A DNA stretch of 64,000 nucleotides, from the NCBI GenBank assembly GCA_023248495.1, contig JAHFEK010000002.1:26733-90732 (forward strand). The letters are read 5' to 3'. This document shows positions 37,694 through 57,497 of the stretch, piece after piece. This DNA comes from Nitrospinales bacterium. GTDB lineage: Bacteria > Nitrospinota_A > UBA7883 > JACRGQ01. The stretch's first letter is position 1. Every line of letters starts with the position of its first letter. The notes under the pieces are model-generated. The model searched no databases, was not told where the DNA came from, and worked only from the letters and a program-made list of their open reading frames with translations. The position numbers and the translations under genes were made by a program.

Positions 37694-38080
37694 ATGAGTG
37701 AGGACATGTTCGAACGCCTTGTTGCCGAAGCGGTGACGGCTTTGCCCGCTCAAATGCGGAGGGAAATGAAAAATGTGGCGATCATCATTGAACAAAAACC
37801 ACGAAGGAAGAAATTACGGGAAGTCGGCATCAGGCTGCATGAGACGCTGCTGGGCCTGTATGAGGGCATCCCGCTAATCCAACGGGATTCCGGCTATTCG
37901 GGCGTGTTGCCGGATAAAATCACCATCTTCAAAGAACCAATCGAGGAACTTTCCGGAGGAAATCCGGAAAAGCTCGCCGACCTCGTGCGAGAAGTGGTAT
38001 GGCATGAAATCGGCCACCATTTCGGGTTAAGCGATCCCGAGCTTCGTCACCTCGAGAAAGAGCGAAAAAAAAATAAATAG
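37694..38080 (+). CDS. small zincin-like metallopeptidase-family protein
   Basis: 128 aa with C-terminal WHEIGHHFG (HExxH). Confidence 0.65.
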   Translation: MSEDMFERLVAEAVTALPAQMRREMKNVAIIIEQKPRRKKLREVGIRLHETLLGLYEGIPLIQRDSGYSGVLPDKITIFKEPIEELSGGNPEKLADLVREVVWHEIGHHFGLSDPELRHLEKERKKNK

Positions 38081-38094
38081 AAATGACCCGTTGC

Positions 38095-42029: not shown

Positions 42030-42037
42030 GCTGTAGA

Positions 42038-42700
42038 TCAGGTTATTTTACAAAGGTAATCAAGTCCGTCAAAAGCGTCGTAGGCAAGGTAATCAAGCCG
42101 CAGCGTCTCCGCCGTGCTTTGCTGAACGGCGGAACCGCCCCCGATAACCTTGATATGGCCCAATCCCTGCGCGGCCAATGCCGGCTTTATCATCTTTATC
42201 TTAGGAAGACACACGCTCATAAGGCTGGAAACCCCCACAAAATCCGCACGCTCTTTGCCCGCGGCGGTGATGAAACCTTCCACCGGAACATCCTTTCCCA
42301 AATTTATCACCCTGAGGTTGTTAAAGCGGCACAGCGTGGCCACCACATGCTTCCCCAAGTCGTGCACGTCCCCCTGGATAGTTCCGATAACGATTGTTTT
42401 TCGTTGGAGCGTTCCGGCGGCACGCTCATGATTCTCGGCAACGCTGTCCAATTGCTGTTTCAGCTTAATCGCCACGCATTCGTCCACCACCTCGGTCATC
42501 GCACGGCAGGCAAGCAATACATCCAGAAGCTGGAAGTTTTCTATCGTGCATTTGTTGCGGAGGATGGCGACCCCTTTGGCGACGGCATCAACTATCTGTT
42601 CGACGGTGTATGATTCAGCAAGAAGCTTTTCAGCGCAAAGCACTGCTTCCCTGTTCTCGCCATGTTGGACTAAAAGAGCAAGATCCATCAGCGGATCCAT
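42038..42700 (-). CDS. corrinoid (cobalamin-binding) protein, MtaC/MtbC-like
   Basis: An N-terminal helical cap plus a Rossmann domain with the DxHxxG motif in GTIQGDVHDLGKHVV and VGVSSLM. Confidence 0.85.
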   Translation of the reverse strand: MDPLMDLALLVQHGENREAVLCAEKLLAESYTVEQIVDAVAKGVAILRNKCTIENFQLLDVLLACRAMTEVVDECVAIKLKQQLDSVAENHERAAGTLQRKTIVIGTIQGDVHDLGKHVVATLCRFNNLRVINLGKDVPVEGFITAAGKERADFVGVSSLMSVCLPKIKMIKPALAAQGLGHIKVIGGGSAVQQSTAETLRLDYLAYDAFDGLDYLCKIT

Positions 42701-42725
42701 TGATACCCCCCTGGCCGCGGCGGCA

Positions 42726-44156
42726 TCAATCGTCCTGGAGATATTGATGTAAGGAGACTATCCCGTATTTTTTTATTTTTCTATCGAGACGGGGGCGCGT
42801 AATTCCGAGTATCCGGCATGTTTCGCCCTTGTGCCATTTCGTGTGATTCAGCGTTTTGGCGATCTGTTCCTTCTCAACCTCATTCAGGGAAACCGGCCGG
42901 TAACCGTTCTTCGGCGTGACCACGGGGGCATCGATATTCACCTCCGGCGTCAGTTCCTCAGCCCCTGTTTTCTCTTTGTGGGCCGCCATGAAGTGTTTGA
43001 GAAATATCCGGTCGCCGCGCGACATAATGACCGTGTGCGTGATGGCATTCTCAAGCTGGCGGACATTGCCCGGCCATTGCCGGTTCATTAGCCAATTGAG
43101 GGCCTCGCGGGAAACATATTTTATGCCGCGATCCGTTTCCAGCCCTTTTTTCGCGATAAAATAAAGCGCCAAAAGCGGAATATCCTCAACCCTCTCCCGC
43201 AGCGGGGGAATATGTATGTTGATCACCTTTATGCGGTAATAGAGGTCGTCCCTGAACTTTCCTTCGCGAACCATCTGCTCAAGATTTTTATTGGTGGCGT
43301 ACAGTATGCGGCAGTTGGCTTTTATTTTCGTCTTCCCCCCCACCTGCTCGAACTCGCGCTCCTGCAATACGCGCAGGATTTTCGCCTGAAGGCCAAAACT
43401 CATTTCGGAAATTTCATCAAGAAATATGGTTCCGTCCCCGGCCAGGGCGAACTTGCCCTCCTTGGCGTTAATGGCGCCGGTAAACGCTCCTTTGACGTGC
43501 CCGAACAACTCTGATTCAAGCAAAGTATCCACGATGGCTGAACAGTTGATGGAAATAAAAGGCGCCGAGGCATTTTTGCTGGAAAGATGGATTGCCTTGG
43601 CAACCAATTCCTTGCCGGTGCCGCTTTCTCCGGTTATAAGAACGGGGGATTTGCTCATGGAGACCATCCCCACCATCTTGAAAACCTCTTTCATAAGCTG
43701 GCCCTTGCCAACGAAGACGGTATCGGTGCTATCCAGCGGCGGTACGGAAACAAGCGATTCGTCGTTCGCCTTGAGGCTGGAGAAAAAATCCTCCGCTTTC
43801 GCCACGGCATTGTCCAGCTCCTGTATGTCTATCGGCTTGTGGATGTACTCGCCAACGCCGTTCTGCACCGCTTTGACGGTTGATTCCATATCCGGATATG
43901 CGGTGATTATGATGGAATAGTAGTTCTTTCCGGTCTTACTGAGCTCCTTGAGTATTTCCACGCCATCCGTATCGGGTAGCCGTAGATCAAGGATAACGAT
44001 AGCTGAATCCAGCTGCTCGAGTTTTTCCAATCCCTCTTTGGCGAAGTTCGCGGTGATGACCTGCATGCCCTGAGATTCAAAATGCAATTGAAGGGTTTTG
44101 CGGATCGCCTTGTCATCGTCGATGATAACTATCGGTTGAGGAGACACCCCGCCCAT
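42726..44156 (-). CDS. sigma-54-dependent response regulator (REC + AAA+ + Fis-type HTH)
   Basis: REC (IVIIDDD...ILDLRLPD), GESGTGKE Walker A, the GAFTGA sigma-54 contact loop and a C-terminal HTH. ATG at 44156 has GGAG 8 nt upstream. The ORF-track GTG at 44192 is less likely. Confidence 0.9.
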   Translation of the reverse strand: MGGVSPQPIVIIDDDKAIRKTLQLHFESQGMQVITANFAKEGLEKLEQLDSAIVILDLRLPDTDGVEILKELSKTGKNYYSIIITAYPDMESTVKAVQNGVGEYIHKPIDIQELDNAVAKAEDFFSSLKANDESLVSVPPLDSTDTVFVGKGQLMKEVFKMVGMVSMSKSPVLITGESGTGKELVAKAIHLSSKNASAPFISINCSAIVDTLLESELFGHVKGAFTGAINAKEGKFALAGDGTIFLDEISEMSFGLQAKILRVLQEREFEQVGGKTKIKANCRILYATNKNLEQMVREGKFRDDLYYRIKVINIHIPPLRERVEDIPLLALYFIAKKGLETDRGIKYVSREALNWLMNRQWPGNVRQLENAITHTVIMSRGDRIFLKHFMAAHKEKTGAEELTPEVNIDAPVVTPKNGYRPVSLNEVEKEQIAKTLNHTKWHKGETCRILGITRPRLDRKIKKYGIVSLHQYLQDD

Positions 44157-44322
44157 CCCCCGAACTCCAACAATCTCTTCCACAACGATCACCCTCTAAA
44201 TAGACCGCCATATCCGTCACCCTAGACTTTCCGGACAGGCTCTTGATATCAGCGATTTTAAATTATGCGCTCCAGCGGTTAGAGAAGCCGCATAACTTAT
44301 AACCCGTTGATTGCGCTACTAT

Positions 44323-44439
44323 TTACCTAGTAAAAACATGCCAGACAATATACAGCGTTACCACCATGTTCGCAAACACGCCAAAATGAATCATCCAATC
44401 CAACATGGTGAAGTTCTTAAGAAAAGACCGCATTCCCAT
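44323..44439 (-). CDS. possible 38-aa single-TM small protein (below ORF-track cutoff)
   Basis: Hand translation gives MGMRSFLKNFTMLDWMIHFGVFANMVVTLYIVWHVFTR. GAAGGGG lies 8 nt upstream of the ATG. It sits in an AT-rich spacer and is unverified. Confidence 0.25.
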   Translation of the reverse strand: MGMRSFLKNFTMLDWMIHFGVFANMVVTLYIVWHVFTR

Positions 44440-44580
44440 TTTCAATACCCCTTCATAAAAGTCCGATATTATAATGTTTTGTTCAAATTCAAATTGTATA
44501 CAATTATATCATAGAATCGTTCCTCGTATTATCTGTAATGATGGCGAGGAAGTGCCGACCTGATGATAGGAATTATTCAT

Positions 44581-44613
44581 AAAAAAAAGGGCGGTGAGTG
44601 ATGCTCACCGCCC
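44581..44613 (-). terminator. rho-independent terminator ending the cytochrome/bd-like operon
   Basis: Reverse strand reads GGGCGGTGAG-catca-CTCACCGCCC followed by T8, 58 nt after the stop at 44671. Confidence 0.85.
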
Positions 44614-44670
44614 CGTAAAGCCACCGCCTTACAGCGATAACCCTTAGTACCTTTAAATAAGGCTAGGTCC

Positions 44671-45054
44671 TTATTTTGCGGCGCCCGTGCACTTGCACAT
44701 TTTGCGAAGGTGGGCAACGATGTCCTTAATTTCCGCAGCAGTCAAATTGTGTTTCCAAGCCGGCATCTGGGTGGATTTGCCGACCGCCGAACCGCCTTCA
44801 GTAATGGCAAGAGCGACGTTGGCATCGGAAAGCTCGCCCATCGCCTTTGCATCAGAGTGGTTCCTAGGGGCAACCGCCAGATACGGTGCGTTGATCCCTT
44901 TGCCCGTACCGGCGGTGCCGTGGCACTGAACGCAGTACAAGCTATAGTTATCAGCGGCGGTTTCCGCCGAAGCCGAACCAACCATGCCGGCCGCCAAGAA
45001 GAGTGCCGCCGCGAACATCGCCGCGGAGAACTTCGAAATTACTATCGTTTTCAT
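44671..45054 (-). CDS. monoheme class-I c-type cytochrome
   Basis: Signal peptide, CVQCHG and a distal Met region STQMPAW. Confidence 0.85.
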   Translation of the reverse strand: MKTIVISKFSAAMFAAALFLAAGMVGSASAETAADNYSLYCVQCHGTAGTGKGINAPYLAVAPRNHSDAKAMGELSDANVALAITEGGSAVGKSTQMPAWKHNLTAAEIKDIVAHLRKMCKCTGAAK

Positions 45055-45068
45055 CTATGTCCCCCTCC

Positions 45069-45731
45069 TTATTTCAACGACGCGATGTAGTTCACAACAA
45101 GCTGCATGGACGCGTCATCAAGATCGCGCTTGCCCATCCATACCTTCGGATCCCAGTACTGCGGATCTTGCACGAAGGAGTAAACCCAATCCGGGTTCAA
45201 CCGTTTGCCGATTCCTTCCCACGTCGGGCAGGACAAGCCGCCGTTGCCTTCGATGGAGTGGCAACCGTTGCAGGCTTCGGTTTTGATGATAAGCATCTTG
45301 GCCTTTGCCTTGGAGAATTCGCCGATCTTCGCGACACCGGTCTTCATCTTGGCGTCCTTGAGGGTCATAAGGTAATCGGCGGCCGCGGCGGCGTCACCGG
45401 CGCTCAGCTTGGAAGCGCATTTCGCCGGAGCAGCCACGGTATCGGTATCGCCAGTGGTCTTGATGTTGTTGGAGTACACCGTGCCCGCGGGGCGGATGAC
45501 GGTCGGGTTCTGCAGGAATCCCACCAGCCAATCTTTGTTGAACTTGCTGCCCGCGTAGAACAGATCGGGCGCTTTCCGCGCCTTCACTTCCGCTATGGTC
45601 TTCACCGCCGGACCCGCCAATTTGTGGCAGCTGCCACACGGTTTAACGATGGCCGCCCCATCCGCCGCAAACGCGGACGGAACCGCCAGCAGGAGCGCTA
45701 ATGCAAATACGGTAATGCCTCTTTTTATCAT
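45069..45731 (-). CDS. diheme c-type cytochrome
   Basis: Signal peptide, CGSCHK and CNGCHS. Confidence 0.85.
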   Translation of the reverse strand: MIKRGITVFALALLLAVPSAFAADGAAIVKPCGSCHKLAGPAVKTIAEVKARKAPDLFYAGSKFNKDWLVGFLQNPTVIRPAGTVYSNNIKTTGDTDTVAAPAKCASKLSAGDAAAAADYLMTLKDAKMKTGVAKIGEFSKAKAKMLIIKTEACNGCHSIEGNGGLSCPTWEGIGKRLNPDWVYSFVQDPQYWDPKVWMGKRDLDDASMQLVVNYIASLK

Positions 45732-45765
45732 GTCCCCTATCCTTTCTGGTTAAAAAATCAACCTG

Positions 45766-47322
45766 TTACTTTCTATTTTTCTTAAGATACGCCGCTGCCG
45801 CCAACTGGCCGCCCGCAAGCAATACCAACACCAACAACGGAACCAAATACACTTCTTTGCCGGTAGGCGGTTGCAGCAACAGCCACGCCCAAGAGGTCAT
45901 GGTGTGCTTGGAACCCTTTTCACCGTTGGAGCCATCCCAGTTAGCGAACGCAATCGGGATAAACCGGCCCACTTCAAATTGGGTGTCCTTGTCCTTGTTG
46001 GCGGTCACAAGCTTCCGCTTCATCATAACTTTCCAGGTACCATCTTTGTACGTACCGGAAGAGGTAAAGCCGGCGGCAGCCGCATCACCCGGCGTTCGTT
46101 TGCCCGAACCCGAGTAGATCATCGTCATGCCAGCGGCCGGAGCGGTGGTCGTGCCAGAATTCCACGCCATCATGGCAACCGGATGGGCCGCATCGCCGTG
46201 GCCGAAATAAGGCTTTTCCGAACCGCTGGGAATAACAACCGGCGTCTGGATCGCAACCTGGTCGGGGGAAATTGTATCCCACGCAATCAGTTCCGCTGTC
46301 GGATCGCCTGGGATACTCTTGGTGCGGTCATCCCACTCGAGCAAGAACGCGATTTCCTTGTCGTTATACAGCGCCTTCACCTTGATGAGATCGTTTGCCG
46401 GGGTAAAGAAGCGCTCCGGCTGGATAATCTGGGGAGCCAGGAAATACGCGGTGCTTGCCGTTTCGTTCCAGACGGCGTCGTTTTCGTCCTTCGGCATTAC
46501 GTCGCGCTGAAAACCTTTCACGACGGTCTGACCGTCAACCGTTTTGCTGGTCGGCTCGGCGAGGGACATGACGTAATTGACCACGTGCCAGCGGTCTTCC
46601 ACCGACAGCTTGCCGCTAGAGGTGGTATCAGCCGCAAATGACGGCATCGGCGTGTTCGGAATGCCGTTTGACACGCGGGCGAAAATGTCTTCGGCAGTAT
46701 ACCCGCCGCGGAAAGTCCACGGTTTGGTCAGATTTCTCGGCCAGACACGGATACCGCTGTCTTCTTTGAGCTTTTTCGTCAGGTCGCCTTTGCCGACCTG
46801 GCCATGACACTCAAAGCACTTTGCGGTCTGGAACGCCTTCTTGCCCAATTCGATGCTTTCCGCCGAGCTCTTTATCTTCTTGCTCACGTCGATCTGGGGC
46901 GGATTCGCGGTTTTGCCAAACATGTCGGTAAGCGACTTGACGTAGGCAACAACGTCCCACCGATCCTGCTCGGTCAGGATGTCATTCCAGGCCGGCATAC
47001 CGGTACCCGGCATACCGTTGGTGATGACCTTAAACAGGTCCTCATCGCGCGGAATTTCTACTTTCGGGTCGCTGGATTTGTACTTGTACATACCAAGCGT
47101 AAAGTCACGCGGCGGAGGAATCAGGAAAGTGGTGGCAGGCCCGTCGGCCGCCCCTTTTTTACCATGACACCACCAGCAGCGCTTCTGGTAGATCGCTTCG
47201 CCTTTTTTTGCGTCGCCGGCGGCAAATGCCTCGGGCGCGGCGAAAATGGTGACTACGGCGAAGAGCGTAGCCATCGCCAAGCCAGTTTTTCTTACGTTCT
47301 TAAATAAAGACATGGTAGTCAT
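45766..47322 (-). CDS. diheme cytochrome c fused to an EB_dh/DOMON-like (NxrC/EbdC gamma-subunit-like) heme-binding domain
   Basis: CWWCHG and CFECHG in the N-terminal half. The C-terminal ...VKALYNDKEIAFLLEWDDRT...DQVAIQ...IAFANWDGSNGEKGSKHTMTSW fits the EB_dh pattern. C-terminal TM anchor. Confidence 0.6.
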   Translation of the reverse strand: MTTMSLFKNVRKTGLAMATLFAVVTIFAAPEAFAAGDAKKGEAIYQKRCWWCHGKKGAADGPATTFLIPPPRDFTLGMYKYKSSDPKVEIPRDEDLFKVITNGMPGTGMPAWNDILTEQDRWDVVAYVKSLTDMFGKTANPPQIDVSKKIKSSAESIELGKKAFQTAKCFECHGQVGKGDLTKKLKEDSGIRVWPRNLTKPWTFRGGYTAEDIFARVSNGIPNTPMPSFAADTTSSGKLSVEDRWHVVNYVMSLAEPTSKTVDGQTVVKGFQRDVMPKDENDAVWNETASTAYFLAPQIIQPERFFTPANDLIKVKALYNDKEIAFLLEWDDRTKSIPGDPTAELIAWDTISPDQVAIQTPVVIPSGSEKPYFGHGDAAHPVAMMAWNSGTTTAPAAGMTMIYSGSGKRTPGDAAAAGFTSSGTYKDGTWKVMMKRKLVTANKDKDTQFEVGRFIPIAFANWDGSNGEKGSKHTMTSWAWLLLQPPTGKEVYLVPLLVLVLLAGGQLAAAAYLKKNRK

Positions 47323-47329
47323 TTCTCCC

Positions 47330-48109
47330 CTATTTCTTCTCTGCGACAGTCGCGGTTACGCGCGGCTTATTCCCGCTCTGTTCGTAGATGAACATTACCG
47401 CTTTCCATGCTTCCTCCTCGGAAATCATGGTGTGCCACACCGGCATGGCGGTCGCCCACGGCGCACCTTCGCCCGGCAGACCGGGACCACCCGTGCCAAT
47501 GCGCCAGAACACGAAGGACTCGGTCAACATCGCAATGGTGCCAACGTCAACAAAGTTCGCGGGAATCGGGTTGAACGCCTGATAGAAGTGGCCCTTACCG
47601 TCCTGCTTGTCGCCATGGCAATAGAAGCAGTTCTTGTAATAGACAATTCCGCCCTCTTCCACGTTCTTGGCGAAATTCGCCTTGTCTTCGCGTAAAGGAT
47701 TCTTGAGCGTCTGTAATTCAAACGTCTTACCCCACATGTTAGCCGAGGAAGGCGGCGCCGGATGAACCGACCGCAATTCGACGGGCGCTTCAAAAGACGG
47801 CTTCACATATTGGTAAGAAACCCAGCAGCCAAGGAGACTCACAGCGGAGATGGCGCACAGGCGAAGTGTCGCCTTGGACGGATTACTGTACAGATCCACA
47901 ATCGGCCCAACAAGGCCATTGTACCCTTCATCGCTAAACGTGCTGGCCAGAAATGCGCCCGCGATGATGAAGAAGAGGTACATTTTCATAACGGCCGTCG
48001 GAACCACCGGCCATGTGCCGGGATGGGACAACGAACCCAAAAATGGAACGCCTATCTTTATGAGGAGATAGGCTACAAAAACGCCAATTATCGGTTTTAA
48101 AAAATGCAT
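47330..48109 (-). CDS. membrane-bound (3 TM) monoheme cytochrome c
   Basis: N-terminal hydrophobic helices plus CFYCHG. Confidence 0.8.
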   Translation of the reverse strand: MHFLKPIIGVFVAYLLIKIGVPFLGSLSHPGTWPVVPTAVMKMYLFFIIAGAFLASTFSDEGYNGLVGPIVDLYSNPSKATLRLCAISAVSLLGCWVSYQYVKPSFEAPVELRSVHPAPPSSANMWGKTFELQTLKNPLREDKANFAKNVEEGGIVYYKNCFYCHGDKQDGKGHFYQAFNPIPANFVDVGTIAMLTESFVFWRIGTGGPGLPGEGAPWATAMPVWHTMISEEEAWKAVMFIYEQSGNKPRVTATVAEKK

Positions 48110-48127
48110 CTTTCTACCCTCGTCTCC

Positions 48128-48994
48128 CTATTTCTTCCCAAGCAACGCGTTGACAATCAGGTTCATCTCTGACATCGTGATCTTCTCGGCAAAATCACTG
48201 GGCATCATGTCGGGCTCAAATCCCTTAACCACATACGCATTCGGAGTCGAAATCGACTCGATGATGTAAGCTTGTCCGCTCATACCGGGCTTCCTGGAAC
48301 CAGCCTCTTTGGCCAACTTTGTCAGGTTGGGTCCCATATCTCCACCTTCGGCGATACCCGGAACCACATGGCATGTAACGCAACCATACTTGTTGAAGGC
48401 CTCTTCGGCGGTTGTTGCCGGTTTGGGCGCGGCTGCGGCTTCAGCGCCACCTGCCGGTGCCGCCGGTGCAGCGCCAGTCGGGAGCGGAACAGTGACTTCC
48501 ACACCGCCCGATTTCTGCAAATAAGAAATAACGGCGTTGATCTCAACATCGGAAAGGCCGATGGCCCCCTTGTTGATCTGCGGCATCGGACTTACGGTAT
48601 CGTTCGTACCCGGTTTGCCGAAGCCAGCGACAACGTAGGTCGACGGTTCCATCATTGATTCGCGGATGTACTCTTCGCCGGTCTTTGCTTTGCCCTTGTA
48701 GCGAGGGTCTTTTATCCGCTCGGAAGACCTTGGGCCAACCGCGTCAAGAACCGGTGCGCGACCGCCGACCGGGCTGTGACAAAGTGTGCAGGTTCCCTTG
48801 CCGTGGAATATCTTATCGCCCATCGCGACAAACTGGTCTTTGGTCATCGCGCCGGTGATCTTTTCTTCAACCGGAGGCGCTTCCGGAATAACCAGCGGTA
48901 TCCCAAATTTAGCATAGCCCGCGAAGGCCAACATTATCAACAAGCCGTAAACCAGGATTTTACCCAGTTCTGAGTTACCTTTATTTCCTTCCAT
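48128..48994 (-). CDS. membrane-anchored diheme cytochrome c
   Basis: One N-terminal TM, CTLCHS and CVTCHV, with an A/P-rich linker between the domains. Confidence 0.85.
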   Translation of the reverse strand: MEGNKGNSELGKILVYGLLIMLAFAGYAKFGIPLVIPEAPPVEEKITGAMTKDQFVAMGDKIFHGKGTCTLCHSPVGGRAPVLDAVGPRSSERIKDPRYKGKAKTGEEYIRESMMEPSTYVVAGFGKPGTNDTVSPMPQINKGAIGLSDVEINAVISYLQKSGGVEVTVPLPTGAAPAAPAGGAEAAAAPKPATTAEEAFNKYGCVTCHVVPGIAEGGDMGPNLTKLAKEAGSRKPGMSGQAYIIESISTPNAYVVKGFEPDMMPSDFAEKITMSEMNLIVNALLGKK

Positions 48995-49003
48995 TTTTTC
49001 CTC

Positions 49004-50932
49004 TTAATGCTCCCCTGAAGAACCTTTTTTGGCTGCCAACATCGGCATCCAGAACATGAAAAGGACAAGGGCGATGAATACACAGACGATTACTGTAACC
49101 ACAGCCGCGGCGTAGGGCAACGTCGGCGTGAATGCGCCGGGCGAATTATCCCTGAACACCGTGTAAACGTGCCAGTGCTGGCGAATGGCCGACCGGACGT
49201 ACCCCATAAGACCCATCAACCAGGTAAAGCCGATGGTCAATGTGAAAAGGGCATACTGCGAACGAACCGGCATATTTCCCCATTTGGTTTCGCCCAGTTC
49301 TTCACTCTTATTGAAGATTTTGCCATCCATTATGAAGGAGGCAACGATAACAATGAGGGTGGTGGTAACCTGTGGAACGGAAAGACCGATACGGACGCTG
49401 GCTGGCAGATAGTAACTGTAAATACCAAGCGCCAGAATGTTGCACAAACCGGCAACGTAAAGACCAATCTGGACGGAAGTGCCGTTTTGGGCCCAAAATC
49501 CGTCACCGAGCGCCTTCTTATTGCTGCGGTTGTAAATCTGGAAGCTGAGGAACGTTAGCACGATAAGGAAGTTAACCGCCGTGTTCTTCGCGGCCATAAC
49601 CCCAAGTTTACCGAGCAACGGATGGTGAGCGCCGCCGATCTGGGTCAGTTCCGTCGAGCTCATAACCAGCGTGTGCGGGGTAAGCCATGCGAGGAACATC
49701 GTCACGATAACAATAGCGATCGGCTTGATCATAAAGCTGTACCGGTGCGAACCGTTCGAACGCGCCAAGCAGCACCAGAGGTAGTAGTTGGCGGAAAGGA
49801 ATATCGCGCCGATAAGCACCGCCTGAAGAATGAACAACCACGCGAAGGCGCCGCCCATGAGGGTGATGCCCATCTGCTGCGAATAGTCGTAAATTTCCTT
49901 GGTGAGCCAGTAACCGGCGAACGGCAACGGAAGAAGACCGATGATCGCGATGAAGAACGAGGTGTACCCCATCCAGTCATAGTGGGCCTTTTCCTGCGGC
50001 GTTTTCGCCATGAGGAACTTGTATCCCGCATACGCCGCGGTCAGCGAACCGCCATAGGCGATGTTCGCGACAAAGCGGTGGATGTTGATCGGGTTCCAAA
50101 GGTGTCCGTTGATGGCCGCCCAGACATTACCCTGGAATACGCCAGAATCATCCAATCCCGAAGGGGCCATCATGAACGATGCCCACGAGTTGGAAACCAT
50201 CATAAGGAACACGCCGGCCAAGTTTAGGCCCAAGCCCAAACCGATGTGGACGATCTTGGAGTTCCCATCGGACATCTTGTCCCACCCGTAGTAGTAGGTG
50301 TACAAAAAGAAGCTTTCCGCGAAAAACGCGAGAGCGTAAAAAATCATCACCTTGCCGAAAATACCCGTCATGTAAGTCATAAATTGGGGATAGAAAACAA
50401 CCAAAGCGATGGAAAGGAGACCTCCGAAGCTCGCGGCAAGCGAGAACCCGGTCATGGCCACCTTCATGAACTCGTGCGCCATATCATCATACCGCTTGTC
50501 CTTGGTGACAACGCCGGTGATCTCGATGAGCCACACGAAGATCGGAACCGCGAGAACGAACGCACCAAAGAAAAGGTGCAACTGGGCGATGAACCAGACG
50601 GTTAAGCGGCTGTTAAAGCCTTTGACGACCGGGTAGTCTTTCTCTTCCAGTTTCGGAGGCGGTTGAGGAGCCCATTCCGCGGGACCCTTCTTCTCCTCTT
50701 TTTTAGCTTCAGCCGCAGGGGCTGCCGCCGGGGCCGCTTCGTTAGCCCAGGCTTTTTGGGCCAAGACCGCATTGGCGGCGGACTTCAGCACCGGCTGGCT
50801 GATGTCCATATAATCGAACGAAAGCGCCGGGATTGCAAGCAGCAGGGCCAAGGCCGCGCCAAACCTGTAAACCCCAGTGCTACATTGAGATAACACTTTC
50901 TTGACATGTGAAAACATAAACCTAACCTTCAT
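49004..50932 (-). CDS. cytochrome bd subunit I (CydA)-like 'bd-like' oxidase membrane subunit
   Basis: Segments align by eye to E. coli CydA. QLHLFFGAFVLAVPIF...IEITG matches MYHFLFVPLTLG...METVY. FFAESFFLYTYYYGWDK...LNLAGVFLMMVSNSWASFMMAP matches FFLESTFVGLFFFGWDR...SNLSALWILVANGWMQNP. RSAIRQHWHVY matches EYGRQPWAI. Extra C-terminal TMs are present. The preferred start is ATG 50932 (AGGGGA upstream); the ORF track extends to 51055. Confidence 0.8.
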   Translation of the reverse strand: MKVRFMFSHVKKVLSQCSTGVYRFGAALALLLAIPALSFDYMDISQPVLKSAANAVLAQKAWANEAAPAAAPAAEAKKEEKKGPAEWAPQPPPKLEEKDYPVVKGFNSRLTVWFIAQLHLFFGAFVLAVPIFVWLIEITGVVTKDKRYDDMAHEFMKVAMTGFSLAASFGGLLSIALVVFYPQFMTYMTGIFGKVMIFYALAFFAESFFLYTYYYGWDKMSDGNSKIVHIGLGLGLNLAGVFLMMVSNSWASFMMAPSGLDDSGVFQGNVWAAINGHLWNPINIHRFVANIAYGGSLTAAYAGYKFLMAKTPQEKAHYDWMGYTSFFIAIIGLLPLPFAGYWLTKEIYDYSQQMGITLMGGAFAWLFILQAVLIGAIFLSANYYLWCCLARSNGSHRYSFMIKPIAIVIVTMFLAWLTPHTLVMSSTELTQIGGAHHPLLGKLGVMAAKNTAVNFLIVLTFLSFQIYNRSNKKALGDGFWAQNGTSVQIGLYVAGLCNILALGIYSYYLPASVRIGLSVPQVTTTLIVIVASFIMDGKIFNKSEELGETKWGNMPVRSQYALFTLTIGFTWLMGLMGYVRSAIRQHWHVYTVFRDNSPGAFTPTLPYAAAVVTVIVCVFIALVLFMFWMPMLAAKKGSSGEH

Positions 50933-51519
50933 TTTGTCCCCTAAGCCGTTAATATTCTTATTCCCCTTTAGGAAAGAGCGCCAAGCCCTGATAAGCCTGC
51001 AGAAAATAATCCACTGAAAAGAAAATAACCGCAAAAACCGCAAAGGCAGCAACAAACGTAAAAATCTTTTGGTTCAAACCATCCCCCTTTTTCAAGTTAG
51101 TACCAACTAGGTTGTTAAGAGCGCTTTCCCAATCAAAAAAACGCCGTTAAATAAATACTCTGCTAATTATTCGAAGTGTGCAAGCTGGGTTAAATCGAAA
51201 GCAACCTCCCACTTTTTCCTAACCATCCACAGCAATACTTTTGACATTCCCCCCCGGGAATGCCCCCACCTTGTTTGTGCAACACCGCTTTTGCAATTTA
51301 AAACGTGCCTTACTAAATACAAGAGCCATGCCGCAATTCGTGCAATATTAGCATAAGACCACCAAAAGCCAAGAAATATTTTCATCACTATAAAAATATT
51401 CGGCCAATGGGCGGTTTTACCCGGAAAGGTTAGTGGTTTCATGGGGCCAGCTTCCTAAATAACATGGCGAAAAAGCTTTGAAAAACCGAACCGCCTGTAC
51501 ACCACGTTAACATTGGTTG

Positions 51520-51532
51520 TAACAGGATGTTA
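51520..51532. promoter_or_regulatory. palindromic TAACA-GGA-TGTTA site (candidate operator), repeated in inverse at 51618-51628 and partly at 51634-51640
   Basis: TAACAGGATGTTA (51520-51532), TAACATCCTGT (51618-51628) and TAACAGG (51634-51640). All lie in the divergent region upstream of the ArsR-type gene. Confidence 0.3.
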
Positions 51533-51593
51533 AATACCCCCCCTTAAACGCCGGGATGCTGCGATTTTGCTTTCGTGCGGCACTTTCACCCAT

Positions 51594-51599
51594 TATAAT
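51594..51599 (+). promoter_or_regulatory. candidate -10 box (TATAAT) for the ArsR-rhodanese gene
   Basis: A perfect TATAAT 70 nt upstream of ATG 51669. The -35 is weak (TTTCGT at 17 nt). The TAACATCCTGT site lies just downstream. Confidence 0.3.
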
Positions 51600-51668
51600 G
51601 TCCGCAAGTTTTTACTGTAACATCCTGTGAAGGTAACAGGGAGGCGGGCATAATTTTATAAGGACAAA

Positions 51669-52340
51669 ATGACTAACCAAAGCCCCAAACAAATGCTCCT
51701 GGAGCAATTTGCCCGTATTGGAAAAGCGATTTCAAGCCCCACGCGGATCGAGATGCTGGAGTTCCTCGCACAAAACGAAAAAAACGTCGAGACTCTCGCG
51801 GCTATGACCAAGTCCACCGTTGCCAACACATCGCAACACTTGCAACAGCTCCGGCAGGTGGGCCTCGTCACCTCGCGCAAGGACGGGCAGCGGGTGTATT
51901 ACCGCCTTGCGGACGAAACGGCGGTTGAACTCATGATGCTCGTGCGGAAAATCGCGGAACGCAACATCGCGGAAGTCGAGCAATTGATAAACCTCTACCT
52001 CAAATCCAAAGACGCCTTTGAAGCGGTGCCGGCGGATGAACTGCTCGAACGGGTGAAAGCCGGCACGGTCATTATACTCGACGTGCGGCCGCCGGACGAA
52101 TATGCGGCGGGACACGTTCCCGGAGCCTTGAATGTGCCGTTCAAGGAACTTGAAAAGCACGTGCACAAACTGAATGCAAAGACGGAAGTAATCGCCTACT
52201 GCCGCGGACCGTACTGCCTGTTGGCGTACGACACGGTGGAAAAATTGCGCGAAAAAAACATCAAGGCCCATCGGTTGGAGGACGGATTCCCGGAATGGAA
52301 ACGCCGGGGGTTCCCGGTCGAAAAAGGGGAAAAAAAGTAA
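51669..52340 (+). CDS. ArsR/SmtB-family transcriptional regulator fused to a rhodanese domain
   Basis: wHTH ...RIEMLEFLAQNEKNVETLAAMTKSTVANTSQHLQQLRQVGLVTSRKDGQRVYYRL. Rhodanese ...ILDVRPPDEYAAGHVPGALNVP...AYCRGPYC (active-site Cys loop). Confidence 0.85.
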   Translation: MTNQSPKQMLLEQFARIGKAISSPTRIEMLEFLAQNEKNVETLAAMTKSTVANTSQHLQQLRQVGLVTSRKDGQRVYYRLADETAVELMMLVRKIAERNIAEVEQLINLYLKSKDAFEAVPADELLERVKAGTVIILDVRPPDEYAAGHVPGALNVPFKELEKHVHKLNAKTEVIAYCRGPYCLLAYDTVEKLREKNIKAHRLEDGFPEWKRRGFPVEKGEKK

Positions 52341-52496
52341 TATCACGCCCTTTACCTCGCTCTTGGGCACGGATTCATGGCGCCGCGGGAGAGCCATCCC
52401 TTATTCACCAAGGAGATTGTTTTGATGTTTAATCTTCCGCTTAATGGAATTTCATCCCCGCAGCATGAATAAAATGGGGCGTGCCGAAGAAATAAT

Positions 52497-52973
52497 ATGA
52501 GACAGCGATTACGCCGGCTGAACGATCAACGAAGAACCGCCAAGAAACACATGGAAAACAGGCTCACAATCCGCCTGTGGCTATTCTTCATCATCATGTC
52601 CACCCTTTTAATCATCGTCATCTGCCACGTTTTTGAAGGACACATAAGCGCTCTTTTGGCGGCCGGTGGTTTTGCGCTTGGCATCATTTTGGGATTTCTG
52701 GCGGGAAGGATGTTTATCATTTTTTGGCATCCCGAAACCGAGAAGGTTGTTTCGCGCCTGGATAAAGTCGGCATTGTCATTCTAGTGATGTATATCCTCC
52801 TTGCGGCCGGAAGAAGATGGTTTTTGGGACATTGGCTCCACGGGGCGGAATTGAATGCGTTCGGTCTCGCGATATTAACTGGATTGTTGTTGGGACGGTT
52901 GCTTTCAATGGCAATAAAAATAAAGAATATCTTGATAGCGGAAAATAAAATATTCGTTTCGCGGCACAAATAA
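52497..52973 (+). CDS. small integral membrane protein (4 TM)
   Basis: 158-aa hydrophobic ORF. The start could be MENRL at 52551. Confidence 0.5.
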   Translation: MRQRLRRLNDQRRTAKKHMENRLTIRLWLFFIIMSTLLIIVICHVFEGHISALLAAGGFALGIILGFLAGRMFIIFWHPETEKVVSRLDKVGIVILVMYILLAAGRRWFLGHWLHGAELNAFGLAILTGLLLGRLLSMAIKIKNILIAENKIFVSRHK

Positions 52974-52998
52974 AAAAGGGAGCCGTTTCAAGGCTCCC
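52972..52998 (-). terminator. rho-independent terminator of the NosZ-like/TPR gene block (part of REP-like copy B)
   Basis: Reverse strand reads GGGAGCC-ttgaaac-GGCTCCC followed by TTTTTTATTT, 44 nt after the stop at 53042. Confidence 0.6.
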
Positions 52999-53010
52999 CG
53001 TATCGCGATC
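52978..53010. repeat. 33-nt hairpin-forming intergenic element, copy B (REP-like)
   Basis: GGGAGCCGTttcaAGGCTCCCCgTATCGCGATC. See copy A at 5692-5724. Confidence 0.7.
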
Positions 53011-53041
53011 TTAAACGCCCGGCGGCATGGAAGCCGAAGGG

Positions 53042-53506
53042 TTACTTGCAAGCGTCCTTGTATCCCTTTGCGCAGGCATTGGAATAGTCTTCCTTGGCCT
53101 TTTTCATTTCGCCGTTTATCTCGTTTGCCTGCGCGCGGACATAATAGGCTTCACCAATATTGGGGTCCAGCTCTATGGCGCGGTTAAGATCCTTCAGGGC
53201 GGCGTCAATATCGCCCATATCCTTGGAGGCCTTGCCCCGGAGGGAATACGCGGCCGCGAATTTTGGGGATTCCTTTATCGCGTTGGTGGTCATCTCGATG
53301 ACCTTGGAATAATTCGCGCTCCCGTATGCCCTGCGCGCCTCGGTAAAATAATCGTCGGCCTTTCCGCCTTGGGCGGGGGCAGGGCCCTTCTTATCGCCAC
53401 CGCCTATGCTCATCCCGCCGAGACTGAACGCCGAAGCGCCCGAAGCGAGTGTCATAACCATCACAAGAATCAAGAGTACCGCTCTCATCTTTGCCCCCTT
53501 CTTCAC
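53042..53506 (-). CDS. secreted TPR-repeat protein
   Basis: Signal peptide plus TPR repeats (AAYSLRGKASKDMGDIDAALKDLNRAIELDPNIGEAYYVRAQA...). Confidence 0.7.
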   Translation of the reverse strand: MKKGAKMRAVLLILVMVMTLASGASAFSLGGMSIGGGDKKGPAPAQGGKADDYFTEARRAYGSANYSKVIEMTTNAIKESPKFAAAYSLRGKASKDMGDIDAALKDLNRAIELDPNIGEAYYVRAQANEINGEMKKAKEDYSNACAKGYKDACK

Positions 53507-53514
53507 AATCCTGT

Positions 53515-56394
53515 TTACGTAAGCTTGCCTAGCGCTTCAAGTATGGCCTTCCGCTCGCTTTCCGACGGATCAAGCGTTAGCGCATAATTATAATACTCTT
53601 TTGATTTGATTTCATTTTTTAACACAAAACCATAGAGCCCCGCAAGGTTTACCGCGGCCATCAAATATTGGGGATCCAGTTTAAGGGCCTCGAGGAATTC
53701 CCGTTCGGCTTCGTAGCTGCTTCCCAGGTTGGCGAAAAACATCCCCTTGAGAAAATGGGTCTGCATCCTGAAAAGCCCGCCGGTATCCATCCGCTCGGTA
53801 TCCATAAGCAATTGCATTCCCATTTCCGGCTGGTTTTTGGATAACGCGGCATACAGGGTGGCGATGTTAAGGGAAAGATGGGCGTAGCGGGCATCGGCGT
53901 TGTCGGAATTCATTTCAAGCGCGAGGCTAAAGTGCTTGGCCGCCGAGCCGATACGTCCGTCACTGAGTTCTATTTGGCCCCGCAGAAATTCCTCTTCGGA
54001 CCGGAAATAATTTTGGAATGTCTTTTCCTGGTCCGCCGATGCGAACACGGCTTTTGGCGGCACGCGGAATTTAAGGAGATTTTCAAGATTGCGCCCCTTG
54101 AGGGCGACGCCCGCCTCGTGTATGCGGGGCGCGGAAAACTCGATGTATGGACGGTCGTCGGTAACCGGCGTGACGCCCGCCGCGAACCGCCGTATCTGCC
54201 CCGCGTCCATCATGAAATTCGAAAGGAGTTGATGGACGTTCATAATACCGATCCCCTTCAGGCTTTCGGCGACCGCGCTTTTCGCCATCCCCTCCTGGAG
54301 CTTGGCGACATCCATGGGCATATCTCCATCCGCACCCACCATGATGGCATCCCATTTCGTGTACCACATCTGCGCGTTGGGAAAAACATCGATGAACGTA
54401 GCGACTAGCGCGCGGAAATCCTCCTCCGAGAGATGGTGCAACGGTATCCACTGCGAAACAATCCCCTTGTCGGCAAGCCTTTTTTTACACAGAAGATAAT
54501 ATTCCCTCGTATAAAGACTCACAATGCCGGCGTTGGAGGGAGGCGGAGGTTCGGAGGTTATCAGATCGTATTTTTCCCGCGTCGTCAGCAGGAAATTCCG
54601 CCCGTCTTCCTCCACCATGGAAAAAGAAGGGTTTTTCGCCACGTTAAAATTGGCCTCGGCGAACTTGTCCGCCGCGCCAAATACTTCGCGGGAGATATCG
54701 ACGGCGATGACCCGGTCAAGGCCGTGCGCGGCGGCGGTACCGGCGGTGCTGCCGGTTCCAAAACATACAACAAGCGCCTTCTTCGGCGAAGGATGCATCA
54801 GCAGCGGTATGTGGGCCTGCAGCCGTTCCAGCTGCAACGCCTCGCGGAACGCCCCGGCTATGGGATCGCCATTTATCCATATCCGGCTGACCGGTTTGCG
54901 GTTCGCCGAGAGATCGGAATCCACATACGATACCAACACGGTCGCGGAAGGCCCTTCCCGGTAATATTTCACCCGGCTGCCGGCTTCCAGCTTTTGAGCG
55001 CTCAGTGCAAAAGCGGGATCGCCAGCGGCAACAACACCGAAGGTTAACGCCAGCAAGCAAGCCGTCACGAAAACAACGCGCGAGCGCTCCTTCTTGTCCG
55101 AGGATTTGCCCTGAAGATAGCCACCGGCGATGATGGCCATCCACGACACCGCCACGATACCGAACCGTATCCCCATAAACGGAATAAGCAGGTACCCGGC
55201 GGCAAGTGAACCCAACACGCACCCGGCGATATTCATGGCGTAAAACCTGCCCACGGTGCCCCCCGTTTTTTCAGGCGTCGAAGAAATGGCCCCTAAGATA
55301 AGCGGAAAGCCGCCCCCCATCAGAAACGTGCAGGGAAATACTATTATCATGGAGAAAATGACCGCTTCAGCCATCGGATTGCCGCCCGGTATCACGGAAG
55401 CAAGAAAACCGCCGCCGGACGCCGCCACGCCCATCAGCTCGCGGTTGAAAAGAAGCCCCGCCAGCGAGACCAGCGCGAAGAGTCCGATGCCCATCTGAAA
55501 TCCGCCAAACAGAAACGCGCCGTTGCGCGGCGCCTTTTTCATCATACGGGCCGTTAACGCGCTCCCGGTGCCAATACCTAAAAGAAAAATCGCCAAAATC
55601 AGGGAAAATGCATAGGTCGTGTTGTTCAAAAGCAGGATGAACATTCTTGTCCAAAGGACTTCAAGGGCCATTGCGCAAAAGCCGGCAACGCCGAAAAGAA
55701 ACAGGATGGACCGGCGCGATACCATGAAGTCCTCCGCCGCCGGGGCCGCTTTCGCTTCTCCGGCGGAAACGGATACCCAGCCGGCCTCCGCCGCCAGCAG
55801 GAATGCTCCGATGCCGCATACCATGTTCATCGCCGCCCCAACCCTAAGGGTACCCGACAGACCGATATGCTCGATAAGCCAAAAACCCGCAAGAACACAT
55901 CCAACCACCGCGCCCAGCGTATTAACCGCATACAGGATACCCACGGATTTGCCGATACCCGGCTCGCGATGCGCAAGGTGGCGGCTTAACGCGGGAAGTG
56001 TGCCCCCCATCAATGCGGTCGGGATCAAAAGCGCCGATATCGCCAGAACAAAACGCAATACCATGACGTATAGAAGGTTTCCCCCGGCGCCCGGATGTAA
56101 TTGCACGTAGGCCTTTTCGAGGTGCTGAAGAATAAAGGGAAATAGAACCATATACACCGCAATGGCTAACTCAAGGGCGGCATAAAGCCGTATCGGCGCC
56201 GCGCCACGATCCAGTTTTTTCCCAAAGTATATCGCGCCGAAGCCAAGCCCTCCCATAAACGCGACCAAAACCGCGCTCACCGCGTAAATGCTTACGCCCA
56301 GCAAAAGGGTCAGCTCCCGCACCCAGACAATCTCGTAGATAAGACCGGCGGCGCCTGAAATGAAGAAAAGAATGAAAAGGAGAGCCCTTTTCAC
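53515..56394 (-). CDS. fused polytopic membrane domain / spermidine-synthase-like methyltransferase-fold domain / C-terminal TPR
   Basis: 959 aa. About 12-14 TM (MFS-like) come first. Then ...KKALVVCFGTGSTAG...VIAVDIS...YDLITSEPPPP (SpeE-like SAM-fold motifs), then TPR repeats. Confidence 0.7.
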   Translation of the reverse strand: MKRALLFILFFISGAAGLIYEIVWVRELTLLLGVSIYAVSAVLVAFMGGLGFGAIYFGKKLDRGAAPIRLYAALELAIAVYMVLFPFILQHLEKAYVQLHPGAGGNLLYVMVLRFVLAISALLIPTALMGGTLPALSRHLAHREPGIGKSVGILYAVNTLGAVVGCVLAGFWLIEHIGLSGTLRVGAAMNMVCGIGAFLLAAEAGWVSVSAGEAKAAPAAEDFMVSRRSILFLFGVAGFCAMALEVLWTRMFILLLNNTTYAFSLILAIFLLGIGTGSALTARMMKKAPRNGAFLFGGFQMGIGLFALVSLAGLLFNRELMGVAASGGGFLASVIPGGNPMAEAVIFSMIIVFPCTFLMGGGFPLILGAISSTPEKTGGTVGRFYAMNIAGCVLGSLAAGYLLIPFMGIRFGIVAVSWMAIIAGGYLQGKSSDKKERSRVVFVTACLLALTFGVVAAGDPAFALSAQKLEAGSRVKYYREGPSATVLVSYVDSDLSANRKPVSRIWINGDPIAGAFREALQLERLQAHIPLLMHPSPKKALVVCFGTGSTAGTAAAHGLDRVIAVDISREVFGAADKFAEANFNVAKNPSFSMVEEDGRNFLLTTREKYDLITSEPPPPSNAGIVSLYTREYYLLCKKRLADKGIVSQWIPLHHLSEEDFRALVATFIDVFPNAQMWYTKWDAIMVGADGDMPMDVAKLQEGMAKSAVAESLKGIGIMNVHQLLSNFMMDAGQIRRFAAGVTPVTDDRPYIEFSAPRIHEAGVALKGRNLENLLKFRVPPKAVFASADQEKTFQNYFRSEEEFLRGQIELSDGRIGSAAKHFSLALEMNSDNADARYAHLSLNIATLYAALSKNQPEMGMQLLMDTERMDTGGLFRMQTHFLKGMFFANLGSSYEAEREFLEALKLDPQYLMAAVNLAGLYGFVLKNEIKSKEYYNYALTLDPSESERKAILEALGKLT

Positions 56395-57497
56395 CTGAAT
56401 ATCTTCTCAGTGGTCTTTATTTTAACCCGCATCTTTTTTGATTCGTCAAGCAACGCTGCGGTGTCCAGCATGCCCAGCTTCCCGGTACCGGACTCGGTGA
56501 ACCAGACGCGCCCCTTAGTATCGATCGCCAGTGAATTTGGCTTCGATTCCCCTTCGGAAAGATCGAACATTTGCATCGTGGCGGTTTTTGTGTTGAAACG
56601 GAGCAAGCGGTTATCGGTATGTTGAACCATCCAAAGGTTATCCGACTGGTCCATCGCTATTTCACTGGTTCCCTTGTTTTTCGGCATATCGAAAGTCTCT
56701 TGCTTCGCGGTTTTAGGATCGAAACGCACAATCATGTTATCGACCATTTGAAGATACCAAATCATCCCCTTGGAATCGAACACCGTGCCGAGAGGAGACT
56801 TCATGGCGGGCGATATGCCCCATTCGCGAAACCTCTTCTTTTCGGGATCAAACATGGCGATCTTGTTGCCGCTGCGTTCGACAAACCACATATTACCCGA
56901 GCGATCCTCCGTCAAATCAAAACTGCTGCTGTTCGGGGTCGGGATAATGAACTTTTCGAATTTTTCGGTGCCGGGCCGGAAACGGATCAGCATGTCATTG
57001 TTCCAACCTAGCACCCAAATATCGCCGGTGCGCGCGGCATAAACGATGATCGGATCGACATTCTTGAAAGGAATAACGTATTCCTTGAATGTTTTTGTTT
57101 TTGGATCGAACTTGGATAACACGTTAACGTCCTGCTCAACCAACCATAGAATGCCGTTCTTGTCCGCGGTCATATCCATGGCGTGGCTTTTACCCGAGAG
57201 AATGGGATATTCCTTCATCACGCCGGATTTAGAATCAAAACTTACCAGCGCGTTGGCATTGAACTCGATAAACCAGACGGTGGCGTCCCCTGTGGTGGTA
57301 ACAGCGGTGGGATAGCTCTCCTTCTGCGGAATGTCGTACTCCGTTATCAACTCGCCGCCACGAGCCGCCGGAACAATGGCAACCGATACCATCAGGGCCA
57401 ACACGGTTGCCCTGAAGGAAGTCCCGCTAAAAAAACCGGCAATCCGTGAAAGAGGCCCACCTTGAAAAGCGCGGTTGGGAAATGTCGAAAACAACAT
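56391..57497 (-). CDS. secreted 7-bladed beta-propeller, Vgb (virginiamycin B lyase)/lactonase-like repeats
   Basis: Seven repeats of the form D..G.(I/L/M)W(F/L/V).E...N.(L/I)..FDP.T..F.E(Y/F).(I/L)P. No Cys-rich or heme motifs. Confidence 0.65.
   Translation of the reverse strand: MLFSTFPNRAFQGGPLSRIAGFFSGTSFRATVLALMVSVAIVPAARGGELITEYDIPQKESYPTAVTTTGDATVWFIEFNANALVSFDSKSGVMKEYPILSGKSHAMDMTADKNGILWLVEQDVNVLSKFDPKTKTFKEYVIPFKNVDPIIVYAARTGDIWVLGWNNDMLIRFRPGTEKFEKFIIPTPNSSSFDLTEDRSGNMWFVERSGNKIAMFDPEKKRFREWGISPAMKSPLGTVFDSKGMIWYLQMVDNMIVRFDPKTAKQETFDMPKNKGTSEIAMDQSDNLWMVQHTDNRLLRFNTKTATMQMFDLSEGESKPNSLAIDTKGRVWFTESGTGKLGMLDTAALLDESKKMRVKIKTTEKIFR

Follow-up and report, generated by a model that had tools for sequence, protein, structure and literature searches.

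Which respiratory complex can be built from a CydA-like membrane protein that is encoded with five c-type cytochromes and without CydB? This question is raised by a six-gene operon at positions 44671–50932 (minus strand) of the window, the stretch of 64,000 nucleotides from a Nitrospinales bacterium (assembly GCA_023248495.1, contig JAHFEK010000002.1, positions 26,733 to 90,732) that was analyzed here. The six open reading frames (ORFs), termed A to F, run in the same direction and encode products of 642, 288, 259, 518, 220 and 127 residues; the gaps between them, taken from the ORF coordinates, are 9, 18, 7, 34 and 14 nt. The proteins contain 0, 2, 1, 2, 2 and 1 CxxCH motifs, respectively, which makes eight for the operon, and all six show membrane segments in a crude hydropathy scan. 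The layout in an original prediction, which had been read from the DNA letters before any database was consulted and listed six genes, eight heme c sites, gaps of 7–34 nt and a strong terminator, was confirmed in all its details.

The bd superfamily has been split into the qOR, OR-C and OR-N groups (Murali, Gennis and Hemp 2021, bioRxiv 10.1101/2021.01.16.426971). Within OR-N, the OR-N2 type is a 14-helix CydA homologue without the quinol site, whose operon additionally encodes several cytochromes c and a homologue of EbdC (bioRxiv 10.1101/2021.01.16.426971). Judged by its residue signature, helix count and operon context against these published descriptions, the complex encoded here very probably belongs to OR-N2, and it probably acts as a cytochrome c:O2 oxidoreductase of the bd superfamily. 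The proposal in the original prediction, a CydB-less bd-like subunit wired to c-type cytochromes, is supported. The architecture, with its several cytochromes c and EbdC homologue, has already been described in print, and the family is known and biochemically untested.

Structure and conserved residues of the CydA-like subunit

Gene A (49004–50932, minus strand) encodes a CydA-like subunit of 642 residues. It matches the Pfam family Cyt_bd_oxida_I (PF01654) with an E-value of 2.6e-23 over profile positions 2–240 of 418 only, and scores 32 bits against the NCBIfam CydA equivalog, for which the cut-off is 968. A sequence search of the PDB returned only CydA chains, with the matches confined to the N-terminal ~240 core residues. 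The AlphaFold2 (AF2) model of A, calculated from 63 homologues, has a pLDDT of 81.4 and a pTM of 0.80. In a Foldseek search of the PDB, the top ten matches of this model are to CydA, from all bd oxidases with a solved structure (E-values 3e-8 to 9e-5), and CydB chains come next. The CydA fold is shared with E. coli bd-I CydABX(H) (PDB codes 6RKO and 6RX4; Foldseek E-value ~1e-7). A literature search for structural work on the family itself found none.

The secondary structure of the AF2 model, read with the positive-inside rule, indicates 14 transmembrane (TM) helices, consisting of an N-terminal anchor (residues 19–36) and 13 core helices. The anchor is followed by a low-confidence linker rich in Ala, Pro, Glu and Lys, which is predicted to lie on the periplasmic side. 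Helices 1–6 of the CydA core (residues 108–333) lead into a periplasmic surface helix (residues 336–359), two TM helices in the place of the Q-loop (residues 362–391 and 399–416), a conserved periplasmic loop (residues 417–445), the equivalent of TM7 (residues 446–470), two further inserted helices (residues 479–506 and 518–539), and the equivalents of TM8 and TM9 (residues 556–582 and 605–638). Compared with E. coli bd-I, the predicted structure therefore differs in the replacement of the Q-loop by two TM helices, in two extra helices between the TM7 and TM8 equivalents, and in the extra helix at the N-terminus. The Q-loop itself is absent from A: the alignments end at position 240 of the Pfam profile and at residue 196 to ~250 of the E. 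coli protein, and residues K252 and E257 of the E. coli Q-loop have no counterpart in A in the family alignment. Additionally, the protein contains no CxxCH motif.

Residues were mapped by aligning E. coli K-12 CydA with the family, using both a hidden Markov model (HMM) alignment and MAFFT. The blocks FFAES, GWD and SNSW..P, by which A had originally been judged CydA-like, are all present and align to E. coli CydA, as does IRQHW, a degenerate form that replaces GRQPW. Residues H119, E206, H229 and H285 of A correspond to H19, E107, H126 and H186 (the TM5 histidine) of E. coli CydA, and W587 corresponds to W451, the tryptophan of GRQPW. Other positions are substituted: Y199 is found in place of E99, Y213/Y215 in place of F114/F116, and S581, assigned by register six residues before W587, in place of E445. 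None of the mapped residues varies among 88 family sequences, which come from more than 10 phyla. The heme ligands, which the original prediction had proposed to score against CydA, are a mixed set, in which H19 and H186 are kept and a methionine at the start of a TM helix is invariant, but E99 is a tyrosine and E445 a serine.

The published signature of OR-N2 combines retention of H19, E107, H126 and H186 with a change of E99 to Tyr, a Tyr/Tyr pair at 114/116, a change of E445 to Ser or Ala, and M/N near M393 (bioRxiv 10.1101/2021.01.16.426971, Supplementary Table 6). Gene A reproduces this signature at a nearly constant offset. It also agrees with OR-N2 in its 14 TM helices, in lacking the Q-loop and CxxCH motifs, and in being encoded with cytochromes c and an EbdC homologue, usually without a second CydA-like gene. 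No defining difference from OR-N2 was found; the lineage studied here adds genes E and F immediately behind the four core genes, which brings the number of hemes c to eight.

The invariant methionine M446, at the periplasmic start of a later helix, is the candidate equivalent of M393. The two residues are likely counterparts, given the motif (G-V-M-A-A-K-N in A and R-I-M-V-A-C-G in E. coli), the topology and the published table. A mapping of M393 by alignment was tried and rejected, as MAFFT places M446 opposite E. coli M311 in the Q-loop and the HMM alignment stops earlier; the equivalence accordingly rests on the motif, the topology and the published table.

Conservation in the family extends well beyond the residues shared with E. 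coli. In the 88 sequences, conservation reaches 95% or more at about 100 positions of A. H317-Y-D-W-M321, E346, M359, E428, H437, K449, N450, M573, M576, R580, H588 and D595 are invariant and have no equivalent in E. coli CydA. The segment H317-Y-D-W-M321 is located at the cytoplasmic end of TM6, while H437 and H588 are in periplasmic loops. The extra conserved histidines, for which the original prediction had suggested a search, include H317, H437 and H588.

Cytochrome subunits

Genes B to F follow A on the same strand. Gene B (48128–48994) encodes a diheme cytochrome c of 288 residues (Pfam Cytochrom_C) with one N-terminal membrane anchor (residues 18–36) and two CxxCH motifs, CTLCH at 69 and CVTCH at 205. 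Conservation in 49 homologues is 93% or higher for C69/C72/H73, M137, C205/C208/H209 and M264. Gene C (47330–48109) encodes a monoheme cytochrome c of 259 residues (Pfam Cytochrome_CBB3) with at least two N-terminal TM helices (residues 7–25 and 35–53) and one CxxCH motif, CFYCH at 161; C161/C164/H165 and M222 are conserved in 81 homologues.

Gene D (45766–47322) encodes an exported protein of 518 residues, in which two Cytochrom_C domains, each with a heme c site, are fused to an EB_dh domain and a C-terminal TM anchor (residues 493–511). The EB_dh domain, a heme b-binding domain of the EbdC/NarC type, is matched with an E-value of 1.3e-20, and the NCBIfam family TIGR03477 (DMSO-reductase type II heme b subunit) with 3.4e-26. 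Both heme c sites, C49/C52/H53/M109 and C169/C172/H173/M226, are conserved in 71 homologues. Residues 39–258 match chain B of PDB entry 6H5L with an E-value of 1.1e-43, and the EB_dh part matches chain C of 2IVF. Entry 6H5L is cited in a 2026 preprint as a structure of Kuenenia HAO, and chain B is its diheme partner; a reading of this entry as an NO-binding cytochrome pair was wrong and was dropped in view of that citation. The diheme module of D thus resembles the cytochrome partner in a Kuenenia HAO-type complex, and this similarity implies that one electron-transfer module serves very different respiratory assemblies.

The two remaining genes encode smaller exported cytochromes c. Gene E (45069–45731) specifies a diheme protein of 220 residues with Pfam cytochrome c domains and two CxxCH motifs (CGSCH at 32 and CNGCH at 154). 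Gene F (44671–45054), the last gene of the operon, specifies a monoheme protein of 127 residues (CVQCH at 41; Cytochrome_CBB3, 6.6e-9). Both are inferred to be accessory electron carriers.

Absence of CydB

The original prediction had noted the lack of CydB at this locus, and the absence holds on a wider scale. Pfam searches for cydB (PF02322) found no match in the whole genome, which is 88% complete and contains a single PF01654 gene, nor was there a match in 15 of the 17 other genomes that carry the family. In the remaining two, which do have cydB, the gene is paired with a canonical cydA and is not adjacent to the bd-like cluster. A phmmer search with E. coli CydB, which is of low sensitivity, likewise found nothing within 9 kb at 80 relatives' loci, so that the weight is carried by the whole-genome Pfam searches. 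The operon contains no CydX-like gene either, a further difference from E. coli bd-I.

Phylogeny and gene order

More than 6300 proteins with an E-value of 0.001 or better were found among the candidates scored, with identities of 45–95%. The closest relatives in species-representative genomes are from metagenome-assembled genomes (MAGs) of Nitrospinota (71–73% identity), in agreement with the original prediction, which placed proteins of this kind in Nitrospira/Nitrospina-type genomes. Other members are found in Nitrospirota, several proteobacterial classes, Bacteroidota/Rhodothermota, Gemmatimonadota, Poribacteria, an anammox MAG and one archaeal bin. The cultured carriers include Sedimenticola hydrogenitrophicus SN1189 and Aestuariirhabdus sp. 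LZHN29.

The family is well separated from canonical CydA. Members score 390–900 bits against the family HMM, compared with 44–77 bits for canonical CydA, and in a maximum-likelihood tree canonical CydA lies across a very long branch with 100% support. Gene A falls in a Nitrospinota subclade, within a well-supported clade of Nitrospira, proteobacterial and Nitrospinota homologues that is distinct from a clade of tandem paralogues, a shorter type found in Nitrospinota and canonical CydA. The phylogeny called for by the original prediction therefore puts A outside the ordinary CydA clades and together with Nitrospira/Nitrospinota homologues. None of the outcomes named there as contrary to it, an adjacent cydB in relatives, loss of all ligands or placement with canonical CydA, was encountered.

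Among 33 sampled Nitrospinota genomes, 27 have a PF01654 match, none of which spans the full canonical profile. The shorter bd-like type of 513–590 residues occurs in other Nitrospinota genomes (locus L117, 647–2185; L118, 625–2394; L106, 775–2370). It keeps H19, the Tyr, E107, H126, H186 and M446 and has Glu at E445, and lacks H317, M321 and H437; this type may be an NXR-cluster or OR-N1-like form.

Gene order was examined by searching six-frame ORFs of 80 relatives' loci with the six window proteins. The order A-B-C-D, with two, one and two hemes c in B, C and D and the EB_dh domain in D, is kept in nearly all of these loci that are long enough, across more than 10 phyla; C and D are fused in Gammaproteobacteria (~810 residues, three CxxCH motifs). 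Gene A is always encoded with three membrane-anchored periplasmic heme proteins, which together contain five hemes c and the EB_dh heme b domain. The E-F pair directly after D is restricted to the nearest Nitrospinota relatives (L002–L005 and L012). Elsewhere, E and F are located upstream of A, or in a tandem paralogous set ordered A'B'C'D'EF followed by ABCD, and F is always paired with E. Tandem sets of the form A'B'C'D'(EF) then ABCD are seen in L013, L058, L076, L080, L035, L017, L072 and L069. The A' proteins (~720–750 residues) retain all signature residues of A and form a separate, well-supported clade, and E and F belong to the first set.

Transcription in groundwater

One public groundwater DNA run contains 96% of the sampled sequence words, and two metatranscriptomes of the same study contain 81% and 44%. 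DNA and RNA contigs from these runs were mapped to positions 38000–57000. RNA contigs from the two metatranscriptomes cover all six genes (44704–50920), and there are none over 38000–44100, 44346–44673 or 50963–52581. The upstream intergenic region and the ArsR-rhodanese gene beyond it have no RNA contigs, and the response-regulator/corrinoid operon downstream is represented by a single 156-nt piece of RNA. DNA contig depth is even, at ~9x, over the operon and the covered flanks. These data show that the six genes are transcribed together in situ, far more strongly than their neighbors. Elsewhere in the 19 kb examined, transcription is seen at 53002–53588 alone, where RNA contig X2 (depth ~6) spans a gene for a small TPR lipoprotein (53042–53506).

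A comparable case is TO_1 of Candidatus Manganitrophus noduliformans and further Nitrospirota, which comprises a bd-like protein of clade I together with two cytochromes c and a cytochrome b of the periplasm, and whose expression is at the 98th percentile in the Mn-oxidizing strain Mn1 (bioRxiv 10.1101/2021.11.15.468770). OR-N2, TO_1 and the "bd-like oxidase clade I" are the same complex. Like TO_1, the operon stands out from its neighborhood by its strong transcription. It differs in its host, a member of the Nitrospinota from groundwater, for which the data examined gave no sign of Mn oxidation, and in having three core cytochrome subunits plus two accessory ones.

Proposed function

The arrangement of the subunits suggests a route for electrons and protons. 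Periplasmic donors would reduce E and F, acting as mobile or peripheral carriers. Electrons would then pass along the hemes of B, C and D, a fixed wire ending in the heme b of EB_dh, and continue to a low-spin heme b in A (H285/M446) and from there to a high-spin heme at H119. At this heme, O2 would be reduced to water with cytoplasmic protons supplied through the conserved Glu/His/Tyr path. The inner cytoplasmic proton path is kept in A (E206 and H229, equivalent to E107 and H126). Because protons would be taken from the cytoplasm and electrons from the periplasm, the complex would generate a membrane potential by charge separation, as a canonical bd oxidase does, but fed by cytochrome c. It shares with E. 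coli bd-I the fold, the H19/H186 ligands, the E107/H126 pair and the W of GRQPW, whereas the donor is inferred to be cytochrome c and not quinol. OR-C enzymes are likewise Q-loop-less members of the bd superfamily thought to be fed by cytochrome c; their subunit I, in contrast, has ~8 TM helices and a C-terminal heme c domain with its own CxxCH motifs, whereas A has 14 helices and no such motif. A functional analogy may also be drawn with the cbb3-type oxidase (CcoNOQP), in which membrane-anchored mono- and diheme c subunits feed the catalytic subunit and which is associated with life at low O2, although the catalytic fold is unrelated and A has no demonstrated Cu site.

The evidence that O2 is the substrate is circumstantial and tips the balance somewhat in its favor. 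The heme-ligand and proton-path residues are conserved in the family, and Candidatus Nitromaricola carries out high-affinity O2 respiration with no other known oxidase, this being its only candidate (October 2026 paper). Heme-copper oxidase genes occur in 16 of the 17 carrier genomes, marking these as O2-respiring lineages; the exception is a Nitrospira genome, which has none at all. In the genome studied here, which also encodes an A-type heme-copper oxidase, the complex would be one terminal oxidase among several and would probably serve at low O2. Several points weigh against this interpretation. No family member has been purified or assayed, according to the 2024 and October 2026 papers. 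The family also occurs in anaerobes, as two tandem copies in an anammox MAG and in the NXR cluster of Kuenenia (Luecker et al. 2013). The equivalence of M446 with M393 does not come from alignment, M446 falling into the E. coli Q-loop in MAFFT. E445, the ligand of the third heme, is a serine, and the heme complement may therefore differ from that of bd. No Met, Lys or His of the EB_dh domain is invariant in the alignment of D homologues, and the best candidates for its heme b ligands (K370, H375 and K472/H473) are 50–85% conserved. Since the genome has other oxidases, nothing requires this complex for O2 respiration. Lastly, the expression data rest on contig depth, a crude measure in which transcript ends are unreadable.

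Three other explanations were considered. An ACIII-like role, in which the complex, instead of being a terminal oxidase, would exchange electrons between periplasmic cytochrome c and the quinone pool, whether forward or in reverse electron flow, was raised for the 14-helix bd-like proteins of Nitrospina, Nitrospira and Kuenenia (Luecker et al. 2013). The presence of the family in anaerobic anammox genomes agrees with such a role, as do the heme-copper oxidases of nearly all carrier genomes examined, which usually provide a separate O2-reducing enzyme, and the two TM helices modeled in the place of the Q-loop could conceivably form a new quinone site. This explanation is nevertheless unlikely: every canonical quinol-binding element is missing, the proton-path residues and the H19 ligand are invariant although a simple exchanger of this type needs neither, and organisms without another oxidase still respire O2. 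It is further weakened by the content of the genome, in which OR-N2 cannot stand for a "missing complex III"; as it encodes six homologues of cytochrome b (bc1/b6f-type) as well as a protein of the NrfD family, no quinol:cytochrome c step is missing. About equally improbable is that the H119 heme reduces a different oxidant, such as NO, H2O2, an oxychlorine compound or a nitrogen oxide, for detoxification or anaerobic respiration. Reactivity towards NO and H2O2 is a property of canonical bd oxidases, and has been considered as a question for OR-N too (Kop et al. 2024); redox/sulfur-type regulators (ArsR-rhodanese and a sigma-54 response regulator) flank the operon, and anammox bacteria again carry the family. 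No test, however, pointed to a specific alternative substrate, the phyletic spread is mostly among aerobes and microaerophiles with heme-copper oxidases, and the complex is the sole candidate O2 reductase in Nitrospira and in Candidatus Nitromaricola.

That A belongs to an ordinary quinol-oxidizing bd enzyme whose CydB was missed, or is a decayed CydA without a redox role, is hardly credible. Database records do often name the relatives "cytochrome ubiquinol oxidase subunit I", but this explanation is already contradicted by the missing PF02322 in this genome and in most carriers, by the NCBIfam score far below its cut-off, and by the gap between family members (at least 390 bits) and canonical CydA (at most 77 bits) on either side of a long, fully supported branch. 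A is also not decayed, since its ligands are invariant and the operon is transcribed.

A cytochrome c:O2 oxidoreductase of the OR-N2 type hence remains the preferred reading of the operon, and a further step can be taken only speculatively. The invariant residues H317-Y-D-W-M321, E346, E428, H437, H588, M573, M576 and S581 could conceivably build an extra heme or copper site that is absent from bd. On this view, OR-N2 would reduce O2 (or NO) with electrons from cytochrome c, without CydB and by a distinct mechanism, and its six-gene Nitrospinota form, which includes the E-F carriers, might be the principal expressed outlet of respiration in groundwater poor in oxygen. The linked operon of the sigma-54 response regulator and corrinoid sensor might act as its switch, together with the ArsR-rhodanese regulator. 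This extended scheme is doubtful as a whole.

OR-N-type enzymes are conserved in most Nitrospinota and experimental confirmation is lacking (Kop et al. 2024), and the bd-like protein is still called biochemically uncharacterized in the October 2026 paper; on this point, too, the original prediction holds. Nitrospira and several abundant marine nitrite oxidizers have no candidate terminal oxidase other than the bd-like (OR-N) complexes. Settling their function would fill a gap in the understanding of very-low-oxygen respiration by major organisms of the nitrogen cycle. The present locus does not open or change the question of OR-N2 function; it adds the transcription of the operon as a unit in groundwater, the list of family-invariant residues and the names of the two cultured carriers given above.

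Operon boundaries and neighborhood

Gene A starts with an ATG at 50932, preceded 5 nt upstream by a GGGGA ribosome-binding site. The operon is closed by an intrinsic terminator (44588–44614, minus strand) with an 11-bp stem (8 G-C), a 5-nt loop and a TTTTTTT tract. Its promoter must lie inside the 736-bp divergent intergenic region (50933–51668) between gene A and the ArsR-rhodanese gene. Matches to sigma-70-like elements in this region are weak only, and neither reading of the sequence nor a pattern search found a correctly spaced sigma-54 -24/-12 element in it. The best sigma-54 candidate, GGCACG-N7-TTGCA (~51312–51294), is 3 nt too wide and was rejected; as the pattern search also gave fewer matches than in shuffled sequence, no promoter was assigned.

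Downstream of the operon, a sigma-54 response regulator of the NtrC/AtoC type heads a second operon (38095–44439, minus strand), which also encodes a B12-binding protein, a UroD/RACo fusion and a histidine kinase. A 38-codon ORF with a single TM helix (44323–44439, minus strand) was considered as a CydX-like subunit and discarded, as it sits past the oxidase terminator. This ORF has tblastn matches in five other Nitrospinota loci (E-values 1e-6 to 3e-10). In relative L004 it is immediately upstream of the response-regulator gene, in an operon that is divergent from the oxidase genes there. Given this placement and the terminator, the ORF is the first gene of the response-regulator operon rather than an oxidase subunit. 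The response-regulator operon is upstream of and divergent from the oxidase genes in L003 (1–6075), L004 (1–5101) and L012 (2–6064). That the linkage is kept despite rearrangement suggests a regulatory tie, and hints that the response-regulator operon regulates the oxidase genes. On the other side, the gene for an ArsR/SmtB-rhodanese fusion (51669–52340, plus strand) is divergent from the operon, an arrangement also present in L012 (6378–7043).

Other respiratory genes of the genome include those for an A-type cytochrome c oxidase, in which CoxA (545 bits) is accompanied by CoxB, for another heme-copper oxidase, which is divergent and has a CoxB-like partner, and a weak COX1-family gene beside heme O synthase. 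The heme-copper oxidase and cytochrome b genes are found on contigs C23, C57 and C36 (L082–L084) and C43, C52, C40 and C57. The respiratory chain is thus unusually branched for a genome of 2.6 Mb.

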